Source: Promethearchaeota archaeon (GTDB taxonomy: Archaea > Asgardarchaeota > Lokiarchaeia > Sigyniarchaeales > SOKP01). From it: DNA of 19,141 nucleotides. Positions 1,534 through 16,426 of the stretch are shown here, one piece after another. The stretch spans positions 1 to 19,141 of the forward strand of contig JABCSY010000077.1 in assembly GCA_018238625.1 (NCBI GenBank), read 5' to 3'. Position numbers and translations under genes: made by a program. A model generated the notes under the pieces. It did no database searches, had not been told where the DNA came from, and saw only the letters and a program-made list of their open reading frames with translations. Position 1 is the first letter of the stretch; every line of letters starts with the position of its first letter.

Positions 1534-3291
1534 ATGAAATTCAAAACATTAGCAGTTTTATTTTCTGATTTAGAGGCTACCCCAAAAAGACTTGAAATGA
1601 TCGATATCTTGTCACTTTTTTTTGGAGATATAAAAGAGAATAAAGATTTAAAGGATTTAGATAAAATAATCTATCTGTTGCAAGGTCAATTAGTTTCGAA
1701 TATAAAACAATTTCCAAAAATCGGCCTTGCAGAAAAAATGATAATTGAAGCGCTATCTCTTCATTCTGGAATCGAAAAAAAAAAGATTAAAGAAGTTCTA
1801 ATAAAAATTGGAGATATAGGGGCTACTGCTGAATTAATATTAACTAAAAAGAAAAAGCAAAAATCTCTATTTGATTTTGAAGATAAACCGGGTAAATATG
1901 AATCTTTATTAGAGATTTCGGAATTATATTCGGCTTTACAGAAAATTGCCTTAAGTGAAGGAGCAGGATCACAGGACGTGAAACTAGGAATTTTAAGAGG
2001 TTTAATGAGCAAAAGTTCTCCTTTAGAAACTAAATATCTATTACGTATAATTACATCAACTCTAAGAGTAGGTGTATCAACATTAACTATTATTGATGGG
2101 TTAGCTCTAGGGTTCACTGGTGTTAAAAAAAATAGAGAATGCATTGAAAAAGCCTACAATTTGCATCCTGATTTGGGAGATATTACAAGAATCTTAGCAG
2201 AAAAGGGAATAGAAGAAGTAGAAAAGATTGATGTGAGTTATGGCGTTCCAATTCGAAGTATGCTTGCCTCTCGGGTTCCTTATGGAGAAATCATTGAAAA
2301 AACAGGTTCACCTTTAATAGCAGAATATAAATTAGACGGAGAGAGATTACAAATTCACAAGCAAGGAGATAATGTTTTACTCTTTTCACGGCGATTACTT
2401 GAGATATCTGAACAGTATCCAGATGTTTGTCAAATTGTACGGGAAAACGTGAGAGTAAATAAGGCTATTATTGAAGGAGAGATTGTTGCTATGGACGCTT
2501 TTTACGAAAGAATGCTTCCATTTCAGGTTTTAAGTAAAAGAAGGAGAAAACATGATGTCGAAGACGTTTTAAAAGAAGTTCCAGTTAGCTTATTTTTATT
2601 TGATTTGCTAAAAATTGAAGACGAATCCTATATAGAAAAACCATTCCTTGAACGACGTAAAAAATTAGAAGAAATTGTGAAGGAAAGGGACGAAATACAT
2701 TTAGTTAAATCCGTTTTAATAAATACAACAGAAGAACTATTAGATATTTTTAATGAAGCACGAAAAAATGGAACGGAAGGAATTATTGCTAAATCTATTA
2801 AAGAGGATTCTACATATCAAGCAGGAAATCGTGGTTTTCTCTGGATCAAATTAAAGGGTTTAGAAGGGGGAAAACTAAGCGATACAATAGATTGCGTAAT
2901 AATAGGAGGGATATATGGAAGAGGTCGTAGAAAAGGAGTTTATAGCGCTTATATCTTAGCGGTTTACGATCCTGAAGATGATACTTTCAAAGCGTTTACT
3001 CGCGTTGCTTCAGGTTGGACAGACGAAATATTAGAAAATTTAATGAAAGAAATGACGCAGTACGAAGTAGATAAAAAACCTAACGATGTGATGTGTGCCG
3101 ATAAACCAGATCAATGGTTTCAACCGGTTGTAGCGATCGAAATTATGGGAGATGAAATTACTATTAGCGATAAATTTCCTTCTTTAGGATTCTCCTTAAG
3201 ATTTCCAGTTTTTCTACGGTTTCGACCAGAAAAGGCTCAAAAAGATGTAACTACTGTCGACGAAATTAAAGATTTGTATAAATTTCAATAA
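1534..3291 (+). CDS. lig: ATP-dependent DNA ligase (archaeal/eukaryotic ligase I type)
   Basis: Motif I EYKLDGERLQIHK, III IIEGEIV, IIIa FDLL, IV EGIIAK, V WIKLK, VI LRFPVFLRFRPEK; N-terminal DNA-binding domain; 585 aa. Confidence 0.97.
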   Translation: MKFKTLAVLFSDLEATPKRLEMIDILSLFFGDIKENKDLKDLDKIIYLLQGQLVSNIKQFPKIGLAEKMIIEALSLHSGIEKKKIKEVLIKIGDIGATAELILTKKKKQKSLFDFEDKPGKYESLLEISELYSALQKIALSEGAGSQDVKLGILRGLMSKSSPLETKYLLRIITSTLRVGVSTLTIIDGLALGFTGVKKNRECIEKAYNLHPDLGDITRILAEKGIEEVEKIDVSYGVPIRSMLASRVPYGEIIEKTGSPLIAEYKLDGERLQIHKQGDNVLLFSRRLLEISEQYPDVCQIVRENVRVNKAIIEGEIVAMDAFYERMLPFQVLSKRRRKHDVEDVLKEVPVSLFLFDLLKIEDESYIEKPFLERRKKLEEIVKERDEIHLVKSVLINTTEELLDIFNEARKNGTEGIIAKSIKEDSTYQAGNRGFLWIKLKGLEGGKLSDTIDCVIIGGIYGRGRRKGVYSAYILAVYDPEDDTFKAFTRVASGWTDEILENLMKEMTQYEVDKKPNDVMCADKPDQWFQPVVAIEIMGDEITISDKFPSLGFSLRFPVFLRFRPEKAQKDVTTVDEIKDLYKFQ

Positions 3292-3319
3292 ATCTTGATA
3301 AAACACAAAAAACTATTTT

Positions 3320-4696
3320 TTAAATATAAATCTGGAGCCCCTTTTCCTCTAATTTCTTTAAAAAGGATGGAGAATTCTTAAAATTGTTTTCTCCTAAATA
3401 TAGTTCTTCTAAAAGAGCAAGAGACGAGATTGATTTTGGAAGTATAGTTAGTTTATTTCTTGAAAGGTTTAAGATTTTTAAGTTTTTTAATTTTCCAATT
3501 GTTTCAGGGATAGTTTCTAATTTATTATCGCTTAAATTTAAGTTTTCTAAGGAAGCAAGTGATCCTATTGAGTGTGGGACGTCTACTAACTCATTTCTTT
3601 CAAGGTCTAACGATTTTAATGATAATAGGTGAGCTATTGAAGGAGGGAGAGTAGTTAATAAATTCCAACTTAAATTCAACGCTATTAAATATTTTAGAGA
3701 TGATAAAGAATCTGGAAAATAAGTTAATTTATTATCGTGAAGATTTAGAGTTTTAAGGTTTATTAAATTTCCAATGTTATTAGGTAATAGTGTTAGTTGG
3801 TTTAATCGTAAATTTAAATGCTCTAATAATTTTAACGAACAAATTGAGGTTGGAAGATCTTGAAGTTCATTCTGCCAAAGTGACAATTCTTTAAGTTTAG
3901 AAAGTAAACCTATACTATCAGGAATTTTATTTATATTATTTACATTTAAATTAAGATATTCTAACGAATTTAAAGAGTTAATCCACTCTGGAATTTCTAT
4001 TATTTGGTTGTATCTTAGAGTAAGCTTTTTAAGAGCTTTAAGGTGTTTTATTGAGGGAAATTTTGTTAACCCTTTAAATATAAAATCTAACTCCACAATT
4101 TTACAACGTTCAATAGTATACTTCAATCTCCAATAAGTCTTTTTTAAGTAAATCAAGGTGAAATAATTGATTAAAATGTCAGTTAATTCCATATGCGTAA
4201 ATAGTTTCGCACCCTTGGAAAAACTTAAAGTCTCAAAGCCGATTTTAAAATCTATATCATCGATTTGTTTTATCTCGTGGATCAAAATTAGTTTTGTAAG
4301 GCGTTCGTTTCTGTTTTCTAAGTTGCTAATTATAGATATTAATGAATTAAAAATTGTATACAAGCAAGTTTGAGATTCTTCGTGATGAAGAGCCCATCTT
4401 AGTGGGTTCAACGCTTTATCTTTAAAATTATACCCTAAAGTAAGAGCGGCTTCGTTTCTGATTTTTTCTTCTGAGTCCGAAATAAGTAAATTTTCAAAGA
4501 AACTAAAAATCTTCTCCTTCTTTACGCTAGTATTATCAAAATTATCCCCAATAGTTCTTAAAATTTGAAGGCTTTCGTAGCGATCTTTAACTTTTGTACT
4601 ATTTTCTATTAATGCGATTAGTTGTTTAACTGCCGATGATATATCGATTTTTTTTTTGTTAAATTCGTCAAATATCTTAGTTGGTGTGCGTCTCGT
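3320..4696 (-). CDS. Leucine-rich repeat protein with N-terminal HEAT-like helical domain (paralog 1); start extended beyond the ORF-track TTG at 4411
   Basis: About 10 regular 23-aa LRRs (LxxLxxLxLxxNxLxxLPxxI). The frame is open to 4708, and the extra 95 codons (TRRTPTKIFDEFNKKKIDISSAVKQLIALIENS...FFENLLISDSEEKIRNEAAL) align with the N-terminus of paralog 2. The proposed ACG start at 4696 is inferred. Confidence 0.85.
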   Translation of the reverse strand, partial: TRRTPTKIFDEFNKKKIDISSAVKQLIALIENSTKVKDRYESLQILRTIGDNFDNTSVKKEKIFSFFENLLISDSEEKIRNEAALTLGYNFKDKALNPLRWALHHEESQTCLYTIFNSLISIISNLENRNERLTKLILIHEIKQIDDIDFKIGFETLSFSKGAKLFTHMELTDILINYFTLIYLKKTYWRLKYTIERCKIVELDFIFKGLTKFPSIKHLKALKKLTLRYNQIIEIPEWINSLNSLEYLNLNVNNINKIPDSIGLLSKLKELSLWQNELQDLPTSICSLKLLEHLNLRLNQLTLLPNNIGNLINLKTLNLHDNKLTYFPDSLSSLKYLIALNLSWNLLTTLPPSIAHLLSLKSLDLERNELVDVPHSIGSLASLENLNLSDNKLETIPETIGKLKNLKILNLSRNKLTILPKSISSLALLEELYLGENNFKNSPSFLKKLEEKGLQIYI

Positions 4697-4712: not shown

Positions 4713-6212
4713 CTATTTGTAAATTATTAATCCATTTTTTTCTAATTTATACAAAAAATCGGGTGTTTCTTCAATATTATTAAAATTTAAATCTAGAATC
4801 TTCAATGATTTAAGATTCTCAAGAGATTCGGGAAGTATTTTCAATTTATTCCCCCATAAACTCAATGTCTCAAGAGATTTAAGAGCTCCCAGGCAATCGG
4901 GTAGATTTTCGAAACGGTTCCAACTTAAATTTAAAACTTTTAAATTAATTAACGAGCTAAACGACTCAGGTAGAGTAGTTAAATTATTATTCCATAGAGT
5001 TAATTCTTTAAGCGTAGAAATCTTACCAATTGATTCAGGAAGTTCAATCAACTTATTATCAAATAATTGTAATATTTCTAATGATTGCAACGACCCAAAC
5101 CAAGAAGGAAGTGATGTCAATTTATTACCTCCCAAACCCAATTTTTTAAGAGATTTAAGAGGCTTTACCCATTTAGGAAGTCTTTCTATATTGTTTAATC
5201 CCAAATCTAATTGTTTAAGAGAAGTCATTCGCTTGAAAGAACCCTTCAATTTGCTTAGATCATTTCCGTGCAAATCTAAAACTTCTAACTTTGATATATT
5301 CTTTATTGTTTTCGGCAAAGAAGTTAATTCGTTCGCCCTTAAATCTAAATGTTTTAACGATTTTAAAGAGCCTATAGAAGGGGGTAGACTTTTAAGTTTA
5401 TTATATCTCAAATTCAACACATTTAAAGCTGTTAATAAACCAATAGAATGAGGAATTGATTTAATTTTATTATAACTCAAATCTAAGTGAATCATTGAAG
5501 ATAATAAGCCAATAGTTTTAGGTATCGTATTAAGTCTATTAAATTTTAAATCTAGAAATTCTAATGAAGATAAAAATTCCATAAAATCTGGAAATTTGTT
5601 TAAAATTGTCCATCCGAAAACGTGACTACTAACATCAGATAAATCTAATTCAAAAATTAGACCCTCTTTCACCTTAAAATTAATTTGACCAAATCTTTTT
5701 TCCAGATCGGATACAATAAAATAATTCTCGATAATACGTGAGAGTTCAAAACTCGAGAAACTTTCAATATCTCTTTTTTTGAATAAGAGATTTAAATTTT
5801 CAGTTATCTTCTCATTTCTTATTTTTTTAATTTTACTAATTAACAAAGATTTTGATTGAAGAGTATCAATTTTTCCTAATATCTTTGAGATTACTAACAA
5901 ACATTTTAGAGATTCCTCGTGTTTCAAAGCCCATCTCATTGGCTCAAAAGCATTATCTAAAAATAATTTTTCTATGACATTAATCGAATAAAATCTTATC
6001 GATTCATGAGAATCTGAAATTAGTAAATTTTCTAATAGTTTAAAAACATCATTAGATTTAGCATCAATCTGAGATAGTGTATTGATGCTTTCAATTCTTG
6101 TATCTAAATTATCGCTATTGTCTATAATCGATATTAATTGATTTATCGCAGAAATTTTATCTAATGTCTTGTTCTTGTAATTTTTATTAATTATTTTTGG
6201 AGATAATTCCAT
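4713..6212 (-). CDS. Leucine-rich repeat protein with N-terminal HEAT-like helical domain (paralog 2)
   Basis: 12 regular 23-aa LRRs; N-terminal helical segment LENLLISDSHESIR...EPMRWALKHEES; C-cap FLYKLEKNGLIIYK resembles FLKKLEEKGLQIYI of paralog 1. Confidence 0.92.
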   Translation of the reverse strand: MELSPKIINKNYKNKTLDKISAINQLISIIDNSDNLDTRIESINTLSQIDAKSNDVFKLLENLLISDSHESIRFYSINVIEKLFLDNAFEPMRWALKHEESLKCLLVISKILGKIDTLQSKSLLISKIKKIRNEKITENLNLLFKKRDIESFSSFELSRIIENYFIVSDLEKRFGQINFKVKEGLIFELDLSDVSSHVFGWTILNKFPDFMEFLSSLEFLDLKFNRLNTIPKTIGLLSSMIHLDLSYNKIKSIPHSIGLLTALNVLNLRYNKLKSLPPSIGSLKSLKHLDLRANELTSLPKTIKNISKLEVLDLHGNDLSKLKGSFKRMTSLKQLDLGLNNIERLPKWVKPLKSLKKLGLGGNKLTSLPSWFGSLQSLEILQLFDNKLIELPESIGKISTLKELTLWNNNLTTLPESFSSLINLKVLNLSWNRFENLPDCLGALKSLETLSLWGNKLKILPESLENLKSLKILDLNFNNIEETPDFLYKLEKNGLIIYK

Positions 6213-12890: not shown

Positions 12891-13511
12891 TTAAAAAGCC
12901 ATTAGGATAAGGATAAATGCCACCATAATAATTGTTCCGCTAACGGGCGTCACCCACGTAAATACTACAAAACCAATTATTAGAACGACCCACCATGCAT
13001 AGGACACCTTTACATCTATTTTATTTTGCAAAGTTAAAATTAATATTATTGCAAAAACGAATCCAACAATAGAAAGGGCTATACTTGTAGGTGAACCAGA
13101 AAGGAATAGCATTACAGATTCATATATTAGATAACATGCTCCAATTAAAGCGACAATTTTCGATTCTGCGTAAGTTTTCTTCTGGCTTAAAAATTCTAGT
13201 AATGCTGCTATTAAAACTAAAATGCCTCCAAGATAAGAGGATCCAGCAGCAAATTCAAATAATATTAAGATAAGCCCGATAATTAACAATACCCACCATA
13301 AAAAAGGAATGTTCACTTTCTTAAAATCCACGATTTCTAATGATATGAACATCACTGCTGCAAAGATTAGTCCTATTATTCCATACATTATATTCAATGG
13401 GATTGCTGTGAAAAAATATCCTATACTTACTTGAATAACGACTAACGCACCAATAAGAGCTACAACTTTAGATGCAGATATTCCTACTTTAGAAGTTTCT
13501 CCCATATTCAT
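12891..13511 (-). CDS. Multi-pass membrane protein built from two internal ~4-TM repeats
   Basis: Strongly hydrophobic; repeated SK[VI]VALIGA ... I[IV]G[LF][IV]FA ... WWV[LV]LIIG motifs. Confidence 0.85.
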   Translation of the reverse strand: MNMGETSKVGISASKVVALIGALVVIQVSIGYFFTAIPLNIMYGIIGLIFAAVMFISLEIVDFKKVNIPFLWWVLLIIGLILILFEFAAGSSYLGGILVLIAALLEFLSQKKTYAESKIVALIGACYLIYESVMLFLSGSPTSIALSIVGFVFAIILILTLQNKIDVKVSYAWWVVLIIGFVVFTWVTPVSGTIIMVAFILILMAF

Positions 13512-13693
13512 TCACTTATTTGTTTTTTAAAATTGTTTTTTTTTTTTGAATTTCAAACAAAATTGAAATTATAGTTTAACTAGAAAGATGTGTTTTTATA
13601 CTTTGTCTTACAATTTATAAGTTTAATAGTTTTAAACTTCAAATTCTATTAATTTAAAATAAATAATAAAAATTATTATAGAAATAATAATTT

Positions 13694-13760
13694 CCGAAAC
13701 CATAGCTAATGGTTCGTCGCCTTGCGACTCATTTTTTCTCGCAAGAGTCATTCCTTCGGT
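13694..13760 (-). promoter_or_regulatory. Eukaryote-like SECIS element in the 3' UTR of hdrA-mvhD
   Basis: mRNA: ACCGAAGGA-AUGAC-UCUUGCGA-GAAAAAAUGAG-UCGCAAGG-CGAC-GAACCAUUAGCUAUGGUUUCGG. It has an AUGAN/NGAN tandem GA core, an 8-bp stem, an unpaired A6 in the loop and a closing CCGAA/UUCGG helix. It is a GC-rich island in AT-rich intergenic DNA, right after a gene with in-frame TGAs. Confidence 0.85.
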
Positions 13761-14234
13761 TTAATTTTTCTTTTGTTCTACTTTTGAATCTTTTTTTTTC
13801 ATTTCTGAACGCAGAGATTCTTTAATTGGATTGCTGCCTAAATTTTCGATTATTTCTGAGATTCTGGTGACTTCTTCTTGAAATCTTTGACCTTCAGCTG
13901 CGGTACAATGGAACATTTGGATTCTATCAGGTGAAATACCCGTAGTTTTTAAAATTTCTCTCGCATACTTTACATTTTTTGCTGCTACTAAATTACCCGT
14001 TTCATAATCGCATTCTCCTTCGTATCATCCAGCAACAATTACTCCATCGGCACCCTTTCCAATCGCACGCATCATAAGTGAAGGCGTTACGCGTCCAGTA
14101 CAGTTGATTCTTATAGGTCTAATCGTAGAAGGGTATTGAGCGCGTATCGTGCCAGCCATATCTCCAGCACCATAACCTCATTTCCAGCACATAAATGTTA
14201 AAATCTTTATTTGGTCTTTATCGTTTGTCGCCAC
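13761..14234 (-). CDS. mvhD: Hydrogenase iron-sulfur subunit MvhD/VhuD, selenoprotein (Sec19, Sec70), 157 aa
   Basis: Missing from ORF track. GTG start after GAGGTG: MATNDKDQIKILTFMCWK(U)GYGAGDMAGTIRAQYPSTIRPIRINCTGRVTPSLMMRAIGKGADGVIVAG(U)YEGECDYETGNLVAAKNVKYAREILKTTGISPDRIQMFHCTAAEGQRFQEEV...KKN*. TGAs at 14178-14180 and 14025-14027 correspond to the Cys of CxxC and GCxxGxC. Confidence 0.93.
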
Positions 14235-14239
14235 TTTTT

Positions 14240-14245
14240 ACACCT
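14240..14245 (-). promoter_or_regulatory. Shine-Dalgarno GAGGTG for mvhD
   Basis: Minus strand TAG-A-GAGGTG-TAAAAA-GTG in the 13-nt hdrA/mvhD gap. Confidence 0.65.
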
Positions 14246-14247
14246 CT

Positions 14248-16212
14248 CTATATCTCTTCTAAAATAGCATCGATTTGTTTTTCATATTGAGGTTCACGGT
14301 AGTATCTTAGCGTAATCGCCTCAGAAGGACAATTGGCTAAGCACGAACCGCATCCACGGCATAATATCTCGTTTACATCTGCTCCGTCAGCTAAAGTCTT
14401 AATTGCATCGTAAGAACAATTTAATTCACACAGTCCACACTTCGCGCATCTATCTTTGTCTACAGTAGCTCGAATTAATAAAATCCTATATTTATCCTTT
14501 CCCATCAATCGTGCTAAAGAAGAAGCTGCCGCTCTCCCTTGAGCTATTGATTCAGCTACAGATTTAGGACCTTGAGAAGCTCCTGCAAGTACTATACCCG
14601 GAATTTTGGTGTCAATTGGATTTAAACGAGAGTGAAATTCCTTGAAGAATCCATCTTGGCTCGTTTCAAGCTTTAAGATTCTACCAATTTTTTCTACTCC
14701 ATTTGCGGGCACCATAGCGCACGATAGAATTACCATGTCGTACTCAAGTTCTTTTAATCTTGTGCTACTAAGCGTGTTTTGGATAATTATTTTAAGATTT
14801 TGAGTTTCTGGGTCTTCTTGAATTTTTGAGACATTAGTTCTAATGTACCTAATACCTTCTTTTCGTGATGCGGTGTAATACTCTTCGTAATCTTTTCCAG
14901 CGGCTCGAATATCTATGTAGGCAACAGAGATTTCCATTTCAGGATAATGTTGTTTTATGAGTTTAGAATTTTTAATTGAAACCATACAACATACTCCGGC
15001 ACTGCAATAAGTATTCATGTTTAAATCTCTCGACCCGACACATTGAATAAATAGTATTTTTTCAGGTTTTTTTCCGTCAGAAGGGCGAACTAAATGTCCA
15101 ACGGTTGGTCCGTTAGGCGCAAGAATCCTTTCTAACTTCATTTGGGTTATTACATTTGGATAGACATTGTAACCTAAATAACCCGTTTCTGGTTCGTACT
15201 CGTCCCATCCTGTAGCTACTACTACTGAGCCAACTTTAACATCTACAATTTCATCTTCTTGATCAAAATCAATTGCTTTAACTTCACAAACGCCTTTACA
15301 CAATTCACATTTAATGCAACGCGTCATATCAATTTGGGCTATCGAAGGTACTGCTTGAGCAAACGAAAGGTAAATTGCTTTTCTCGGGTTCATTCCTTCG
15401 TTAAATTCGTCGTATCCGTAAGCGGGACACACTTCAAAGCAAGCACCGCAGCCATTGCAGTCGTTATTGACATACCTTGCCCTTTTACGGATTTTAACAT
15501 CGAAGTTTCCAACGAATCCAGAAATCTCTTCCACTTCACTATAAGTGTATATGTTTAACCTTGGAGTTCTTGCTGCTTCGAGCATAACAGGGCCAAGGAT
15601 TCATATACTACAATCGTCAGTGGGAAATGTTCGATCTAACATAGCCATTTTTCCACCAGTTGTCGGATTTTTCTCAACCAAATGGACTTCAAAACCTTCT
15701 TCAGCCAAATCTATTCCTGCTGATAGTCCTGCTACGCCACCACCAATAATTAAGGCTTTCTTAGTGATATCTACCTCTTTGATTAGGATTTTTTCTAAAA
15801 CACTAGCCCTAGCAACGCCAGACCGAATAAGATCCTCAGCGGTTCTTTGTGCCCCTGGTTTATCTTGTTTGTGGACATAACTCGCGTGTTCTCGTATGTT
15901 CACGAATTCCAAGTAAGAAGGGTCCAAACCCATAGATTCTAGTACGCTTTTAAAAACAGGTTCGTGAGTTATTGGGGTGCAAGACGCCATAACTAACCTA
16001 TTAGCATTGTTCTCGATCATTTTTTCTTTGATGAATTCAGCACCTGGTTGAGTACACATGGATATATAGTCTAAAGCTTCAACTACATTTGGAAGCGTTT
16101 TTGAATATTCTGATAGAGCTTTTGTATCGATTATTTCGGCAATATTAATTCCTCATTGGCATACTGCCACGAAGATTCTCGGTTCATCATTTGTAATTTC
16201 AGTTTCTACCAT
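14248..16212 (-). CDS. hdrA: Heterodisulfide reductase subunit A (FAD, Fe-S), selenoprotein (Sec20, Sec204), 654 aa
   Basis: One frame joins the ORF-track pieces 15601..16059 and 14248..15585 plus a missed N-terminus: MVETEITNDEPRIFVAVCQ(U)GINIAEIID...ASCTPITHE...IIGGGVAG...DRTFPTDDCSI(U)ILGPVMLEAA...CNGCGACFEVC...QCVGSRD...YCSAGVCC...CRGCGSCLANC. TGAs at 16153-16155 and 15601-15603 are at conserved Cys sites. Confidence 0.95.
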
Positions 16213-16426
16213 TGCATAAATCACTTTTGTTCCTTTTTGTTAGTTTCCTCCAATAATTTGTAATAATAGTTGTTATGAATTTAAAATATTTTATTCTAAT
16301 TTAAAATAACTGATTAAAAAAATTAACTTTAATTCAAAAATCTTTTATGTGTTTTTTAAACAATTGAATAAAAAAAGTTCGATTAAATCAAATTTAAATA
16401 GAACTTCTACGGTTATTGAGATAGAG

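Follow-up and report, generated by a model that had tools for sequence, protein, structure and literature searches.

The 3' UTR of what would be a bicistronic hdrA-vhuD mRNA in a Promethearchaeota (Lokiarchaeia-type) archaeon very probably carries a Loki-type SECIS, that is, a member of the Asgard, eukaryote-like type I class, as judged from its sequence, its conservation and the genes that it follows. The element lies on the minus strand of the stretch of 19,141 nucleotides analysed here (the window), which is a whole contig of a 201-contig, 4.29-Mb assembly with 32% G+C. This interpretation is supported and the element is at the same time already known, because it fits all features of lokiSECIS as well as the type I class of Huang et al. 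(2024); the present instance is orthologous to the lokiSECIS already published for hdrA-vhuD, and since the class was published in 2016 and surveyed in 2024, no new principle is involved. The class matters because it has been proposed to connect selenocysteine decoding in archaea with that in eukaryotes. The only feature that might add to the published descriptions is a predicted three-way junction around the element, which may have a functional role.

The element and the hdrA-vhuD genes

The vhuD (mvhD) gene ends with a TAA codon at 13763-13761 (minus strand, as are all coordinates of the element given below), and a spacer of 9 nt (13760-13752) separates it from the AUGA of the core (13751-13748), in agreement with the distance given in a preliminary description of this DNA. 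AUGA is followed by C13747, the 5' strand of the upper stem (UCUUGCGA, 13746-13739), an apical loop of 11 nt with a run of A and a final AG (GAAAAAAUGAG, 13738-13728), the 3' strand of the upper stem (UCGCAAGG, 13727-13720), and the non-bulged strand of the core (13719-13716), which consists of C13719 (position 3n, opposite C13747), G13718, A13717, and C13716 (-1n). The bulged strand of the core (13753-13747) begins with G13753 (-1b), continues with the loop nucleotides A13752, A13751, and U13750, and ends with G13749, A13748, and C13747 (3b). Both strands of the upper stem were identified from the sequence, from predicted folds and from pairing in orthologs. The first of the nine stem positions is a C.C mismatch and the other eight are consecutive pairs, the outermost of which is U-G; six A stand in succession within the loop. 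Thus, the AUGAN/NGAN core (AUGA-C at 13751-13747 and C-GA-C at 13719-13716), the eight consecutive pairs with one GU, and the A6 in the loop had all been described correctly beforehand. The interval given there (13694-13760) also takes in two parts that it left undescribed, namely a lower helix and a second hairpin. The 5' strand of the lower helix (CCGA, 13759-13756, starting 1 nt past the vhuD stop codon) is assigned from folds and covariation and would pair with UCGG at 13697-13694, closing a three-way junction, and the second hairpin (AACCAU, loop UAGCU, AUGGUU; 13714-13698) starts 1 nt past the C of the core. Directly 3' of the junction, folds of the window and of its closest relatives contain a hairpin of A and U only and, after it, a U5 tract (13693-13668, with U5 at 13672-13668); this arrangement is kept in these relatives and may represent the 3' end of the transcript.

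When TGA is translated as U, hdrA extends over 654 codons (14248..16212, minus strand) and contains two in-frame UGA codons, one near the N-terminus (U20, 16155-16153, motif VCQU) and one at the 'canonical' position (U204, 15603-15601, motif DDCSIU). It is because of these two Sec codons (residues 20 and 204) that an ORF call with translation table 11 breaks hdrA into three pieces. The vhuD gene (13761..14234, minus strand, 157 codons) has a GTG start preceded by GAGGTG and also contains two in-frame UGA codons (U19, 14180-14178; U70, 14027-14025). HdrA matches the NCBIfam models HdrA2 (769.8 bits) and HdrA (592 bits), both matches extending through the UGA positions, and has Fer4 and FAD-binding domains according to Pfam, and VhuD matches Pfam FlpD/MvhD (E = 8.6e-42) and NCBIfam VhuD (149.2 bits). 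The end of hdrA is 13 bases away from vhuD, and the distances from the UGA codons to the element are 1.85 and 2.4 kb for hdrA and 0.27 and 0.43 kb for vhuD. The 60-nt stretches after the four UGA codons have neither a common fold nor a consistent hairpin (z = +1.12, -1.19, -1.56, and +0.19), which bears out the earlier claim that the element differs from a bacterial in-frame hairpin. Considering that there is no room between the two genes, that this is the sole element found in the window by the covariance model R1 (see below), and that no consistent hairpin follows the UGA codons, one element appears to serve all four of them, and a single 3'-UTR element would thus be common to hdrA (two Sec) and vhuD (two Sec), with UGA codons up to 2.4 kb away. 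Such use of one element for the hdrA-vhuD pair is the arrangement described by Mariotti et al. (PMC4989117) and Huang et al. (PMC11227280).

We also compared contigs of four metatranscriptome runs from two studies with positions 13400-16300 at a likeness of at least 90%. Contigs from relatives (mostly 90-99% alike) cover hdrA-vhuD and end at 13771, 13770, and 13802, before the element, and one unrelated contig spans 13413-13654; since no contig lies over the element, these data are uninformative on its transcription.

Conservation and specificity of the motif

Folding energy by itself was weak evidence for the element, with an MFE of -17.7 kcal/mol and z-scores of about -1.8 (-1.74 to -1.97), and 9-11 of 200 shuffled sequences folded equally well. 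Much stronger specificity was found for the motif. The lokiSECIS descriptor was coded as AUGA, nine positions with at least eight paired, an 11-nt loop with at least three A among its first five bases and AG at its end, and GA. It matched once in the window, never in 1000 random windows generated with a first-order Markov model, and five times on both strands of the 4.29-Mb genome, and all five of these genome matches were 1-40 nt 3' of frames with an in-frame UGA (one of these frames being devoid of a standard start codon). The motif is highly non-random. A looser pattern scan of the genome gave 29 matches, and every match whose loop was A-rich and had AG at its end lay 1-40 nt behind a UGA-containing frame.

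Six elements from the same genome, including that of the window, were picked with a pairing filter and used to build the covariance model R1, and the 100% pairing in its seed is therefore by construction; a paralog with a 12-nt loop was gapped in the stem by MAFFT and was consequently left out of the seed. When the genome was searched with R1, seven elements were found at E ≤ 3.3e-6 among the 150 of 5185 candidates that were scored. All seven are located behind genes with an in-frame UGA, and the seventh, which was absent from the training set, lies behind a third vhuD paralog. An eighth element of this genome, with a 12-nt loop, follows vhuA-vhuU, and two paralogous elements of the genome have AAC instead of GAC. 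Within the window, a scan with R1 with filters off gave 49.3 bits for the element and 17.6 bits for the next match (3259-3299, after a DNA ligase gene), which is A/T-rich, lacks AUGA and was considered a chance match.

Orthologous loci provided a wider sample. Using vhuD as a query, we obtained 65 related loci, the closest of which come from MAGs labelled Promethearchaeota, and R1 matches (E ≤ 5.6e-5) were present directly downstream of vhuD and on the same strand in every one of the 62 loci with sequence 3' of the gene (in the remaining three, L093, L097, and L098, the sequence stops at the vhuD match or at most 14 nt from it). In the ortholog alignment of 63 sequences (58 distinct), the core reads AUGA in 62 sequences and GUGA in one, and GAC is present in all 63. 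Pairing was found in 97.9% of the stem cells, compared with 83.9% in shuffles and 32-58% with slid partners, and seven of the eight stem pairs have compensatory changes on both sides. Three A positions and the last G of the loop are invariant in the 61 aligned sequences. The covariance-model check that the preliminary description had proposed, namely conservation of the GA core and the stem in orthologous 3' UTRs, therefore came out in favor of the element.

The exact geometry captured by R1 is restricted in its distribution. Searches of a sample of 151 genomes of the phylum (E ≤ 1e-4, strict filters) gave matches in 26, which are the genome of the window and all 25 further genomes of its family in this sample, and none of the 125 genomes from 26 other families had a match, from which we conclude that this geometry is family-specific. 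Such a restriction fits the more varied forms described for other Asgard archaea by Huang et al. (PMC11227280).

At several loci the coding region extends into the SECIS, as on contigs C119 (2415-2457, minus strand) and C95 (about 33923-33965, minus strand) of this genome (G000) and at loci L106, L114, L115, L118, L121, and L129. The frames of the third vhuD paralog and of vhuU enter the AUGA of the core, whose UGA is the first in-frame stop-type codon, and the UAG stop codon of vhuD2-type genes in relatives contains the invariant G that closes the K-turn.

The predicted three-way junction and known SECIS classes

Every element that was folded is predicted to form a three-way junction composed of the lower helix, the SECIS hairpin, and a second hairpin that starts 0-2 nt past GAC. 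This third arm has 4-8 bp in every element examined, and its loop is often GCAA or GCGA. A search for a hairpin plus closing helix succeeded for 66 of 70 elements and for 619 of 3500 shuffled 3' flanks; for elements from other genomes, the corresponding numbers are 21 of 28 and 273 of 1400, and in some of the seven misses the helix lies just beyond the spacing limits of the search. Because MAFFT shifted the lower helix of extended elements by one column between two length classes, model-based alignments were used to count pairs, both for the vhuD orthologs and for a diverse set (34 elements, taken from several gene families in 26 genomes). In the orthologs, 99.6% of the cells of the lower helix and 90.9% of those of the second hairpin are paired (slid controls, 30-51%), and in the diverse set the values are 95.4% and 90.7% (slid controls, 32-48%), with changes on both sides in 4/4 pairs of the lower helix and 6/6 pairs of the second hairpin, counts that overstate independence since the alignments were fitted to the structure of the model and most sequences are related. 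We show here that the SECIS hairpin is one arm of a predicted three-way junction that is conserved and covarying.

The G located 3 nt before the GA of the core is always opposite the C of GAC (58/58 distinct ortholog sequences and 33/33 distinct sequences of the diverse set). Since both nucleotides are invariant, the core can be read as a G-C pair, a 3-nt bulge (RAU), and tandem G.A/A.G pairs, a canonical-looking K-turn pattern that would imply a kinked geometry and that is comparable to simple K-turns, for example in U4 snRNA. In its secondary structure, and only there, the element also resembles the k-junction defined by Wang, Daldrop, Huang, and Lilley (2014, PMC4005666), with which it shares a covarying second hairpin 0-2 nt after the -1n C. 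It differs from the k-junction as described there in having just one, invariant G-C pair on its canonical side and 1-4 unpaired bases between this pair and the lower helix. This refined anatomy (the junction, the -1b/-1n G-C pair, and the second hairpin) should allow sharper covariance models for Asgard selenoproteins and gives defined mutants for first functional tests.

The term lokiSECIS, which a full-text literature search found only in Mariotti et al. (2016, PMC4989117), was introduced for elements of hdrA-vhuD, vhuU, and prxL genes of Lokiarchaeota, so the earlier remark that such elements had been reported in this group is correct. They are defined there by AUGA in front of a stem of nine positions, by a loop of 11 nt that opens A-rich and closes with G (mostly after A), and by GA (rarely AA) after the stem. 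Each of these published features is present in our element, with an identical core. Further common points are the location near the stop codon, the single element that follows vhuD in the hdrA-vhuD tandem, an hdrA gene with more than one Sec, and the lack of matches with older SECIS tools. The main text of that paper presents the stem-loop only and leaves the lower helix and the second hairpin unmentioned; its supplementary alignments (S4) may show them. Huang, Xiao, and Zhang (2024, PMC11227280) mapped the eSECIS-like type I class over more than 400 Asgard genomes. Their model combines a GA_[G/A]A core with 7-15 bp in the upper stem and 8-20 nt in the loop, and the element falls within these ranges. 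Shared with this class are also the joint service of neighboring hdrA and frhD/vhuD genes, the AA core variants in paralogs, and the lower stem and internal loop in the published drawing. However, the stretch between core and lower stem is an internal loop without conserved nucleotides in that model, whereas it holds a conserved, covarying hairpin here. A 2026 review (PMC13188914) repeats the same models, and a full-text literature search for SECIS together with 'three-way junction' returned no paper with Asgard or archaeal SECIS as its subject.

Like eukaryotic type I SECIS, the element has the non-Watson-Crick quartet AUGA_GA, adenines left unpaired in its apical loop, a helix I below the core, and a location in the 3' UTR, from which it presumably also acts on several distant UGA codons. 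On the other hand, the eukaryotic upper helix has about 11-12 or more positions and that of the element has 8-9 (eight pairs and one mismatch), a shortness that had been pointed out in the preliminary description and that agrees with published wording, and an extra hairpin interrupts the internal loop of the element on its 3' side. Rfam searches at E ≤ 10 gave no match in the whole window, and the search with SECIS covariance models suggested earlier yielded nothing either: in the 131 nt around the element no Rfam SECIS model scored at E ≤ 10, and the only two matches there (RefA9 and ctRNA) were judged to be due to chance. Moreover, the reader of eukaryotic SECIS elements is the large protein SBP2, which carries a domain of L7Ae type, whereas a PF01248 search detected only two small L7Ae-family genes in this genome (open frames of 131 and 134 aa) and no evident SBP2-like protein; absence of an SBP2 homolog from Asgard archaea has been reported (PMC11227280). 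The earlier label 'eukaryote-type' thus holds for the AUGA_GA core, the A-rich loop, and the 3'-UTR site but not for Rfam SECIS scores or an SBP2-like protein, and it denotes resemblance only. The element probably works like a eukaryotic SECIS and is probably related to it.

The SECIS of Methanococcales and Methanopyrus resembles the element in its 3'-UTR position and in serving the same gene pair, and in methanogen vhuD elements, according to Mariotti et al. (PMC4989117), AUGA and GAC/AAC separate the main stem from an additional stem below it. However, methanogen SECIS is characterized by a GAA_A bulge and three consecutive G-C pairs, and the main hairpin here has neither; its 8-bp stem is uninterrupted and made of mixed pairs, so that the distinction drawn beforehand from the GAA/A type is justified. 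By defining features, the element is outside the eukaryotic, methanogen, and bacterial SECIS families.

It is possible, if rather doubtful, that the Loki-type SECIS is more than a simple stem-loop, namely a K-turn embedded in a three-way junction, in which both the junction and its third arm are required parts. They could then serve as a docking surface in place of SBP2 and present the A-rich loop to aSelB or the ribosome. On the same reading this form would be ancestral, and the eukaryotic one with helix I, internal loop, and helix II would derive from it by loss of the third arm.

Selenocysteine machinery, rival readings and further loci

Most of the Sec machinery is encoded in the genome. 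We found SepSecS (386 bits), aSelB carrying an aSelB_III domain (archaeal domain III), PSTK (KTI12 family), and two selD genes with one UGA each. tRNA-Sec was not found in the 201-contig assembly, either as an RF01852 match past the cut-off or by ARAGORN, and the best sub-threshold matches turned out to be tRNA-Arg and tRNA-Gly. The assembly is rated 97.9% complete with 7.6% contamination. ARAGORN recovers only 19 tRNAs in all, because of which we attribute the missing tRNA-Sec to incomplete recovery; it remains a gap.

If the element is a Loki-type SECIS, the RNA would fold into a three-way junction closed by the lower helix CCGA/UCGG. The base of the SECIS arm would form a K-turn-like core consisting of the invariant G-C pair, the AAU bulge, and tandem G.A/A.G pairs from AUGA and GA, above which would stand 8 bp and the 11-nt A-rich loop, and the other arm would be the short hairpin starting right after GAC. 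The folded element would recruit aSelB/EFSec with Sec-tRNASec, directly or via an L7Ae/L30e-type K-turn-binding protein, so that the four upstream UGA codons (two in hdrA and two in vhuD) would be read as selenocysteine.

Other explanations of the hairpins have to be considered. They could be a mere transcript-end or mRNA-stability (terminator-like) structure with no role in recoding, as might be suggested by the location of the element at the end of the operon, the A/U hairpin and U5 tract (13672-13668) that come after it, and its unremarkable folding energy. However, a structure of this kind would have no need for an invariant AUGA...GAC, an invariant loop-closing G, and a fixed 11-nt A-rich loop, nor would it be limited to UGA genes as all matches of the descriptor (5/5) and of R1 (7/7) are, and we regard this explanation as very unlikely. 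The exclusive association of the element with UGA-containing homologs of known selenoproteins also argues against a K-turn regulatory site (e.g., an L7Ae-bound translational or processing signal) combined with some other way of decoding the UGA codons. Although the G-C pair, 3-nt bulge, and tandem GA fit a K-turn and the genome has two L7Ae-family genes and no detected tRNA-Sec, the presence of SepSecS, PSTK, aSelB, and SelD and the failure to find any other recoding signal at the UGA codons leave such a site with very little probability.

It might also be supposed that the second hairpin is the functional SECIS, of the methanogen (GAA_A) type, and that the AUGA hairpin is a relic. A GAA does precede the second hairpin in the window (13715-13713), and Huang et al. 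(2024, PMC11227280) report, for 3.4% of genes, an eaSECIS-like structure 3' of the eSECIS-like one but judged such structures to be probably non-functional. Considering that this GAA varies among elements (UUA, UAA, UCU, or AAA elsewhere) and that both a 3' A bulge and a run of three G-C pairs are missing, this possibility is extremely remote. The reading of the AUGA hairpin as a Loki-type SECIS is the one that we retain.

A genome scan that starts from the SECIS points to small UGA genes outside the seven Asgard selenoprotein families of Huang et al. (2024, PMC11227280). One of them encodes a protein of 122 codons with no Pfam family (contig C47:3214-3579 of G000, plus strand, corresponding to L005:2615-2983), which has the invariant motif QPDVG-C-U-U-E with two adjacent in-frame UGA codons, has a Loki-type SECIS 8 nt further on (core C47:3585-3626), and is absent from those seven families as given in PMC11227280. 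Its homologs were detected in 38 of 41 genomes of the family, several of them adjoining R1 SECIS matches, and 55 of the 56 among the matches listed keep two or three in-frame TGA codons, the exception being a partial sequence that ends before the motif. Another frame, of about 60 codons (contig C7 of G000, L001:2834-3013, plus strand; SECIS core C7:5321-5362), would encode a membrane peptide in which the motif GGG-U-(S/L/P)C occurs, and similar membrane peptides with a SECIS are present in three other genomes (L103, L113, and L124); the gene call in G000 is uncertain because there is no ATG, GTG, or TTG start, ATA being the first candidate.

The tandem selD genes (contig C148 of G000, minus strand, 3' UTRs below 29752 and 31271) have one Sec codon each, and each has an extra in-frame UGA 5' of its apparent start. 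The SECIS of each is type II-like, with a stem of 7 bp and a loop that contains a ministem and ends in AG. These SECIS elements also sit in a lower helix with a second hairpin, and one of their cores is UUGA, not AUGA. A 36-codon zinc-ribbon ORF (CxxC...CxxC; contig C201 of G000, L004:397-510, minus strand) ends with RFK-UGA-UAA and has a SECIS 38 nt downstream (core C201:62220-62261, minus strand), and its ortholog in another genome (L130) ends with FRFK-UGA and has a SECIS 36 nt downstream; it is possible that this ORF encodes a small selenoprotein with a C-terminal Sec. A leucine-rich-repeat gene (L004:693-1733) adjoins this locus, and several leucine-rich-repeat proteins (Pfam LRR_8 and LRR_4) are also encoded in the window, at 3320-4411 and 4713-6212 (both minus strand).
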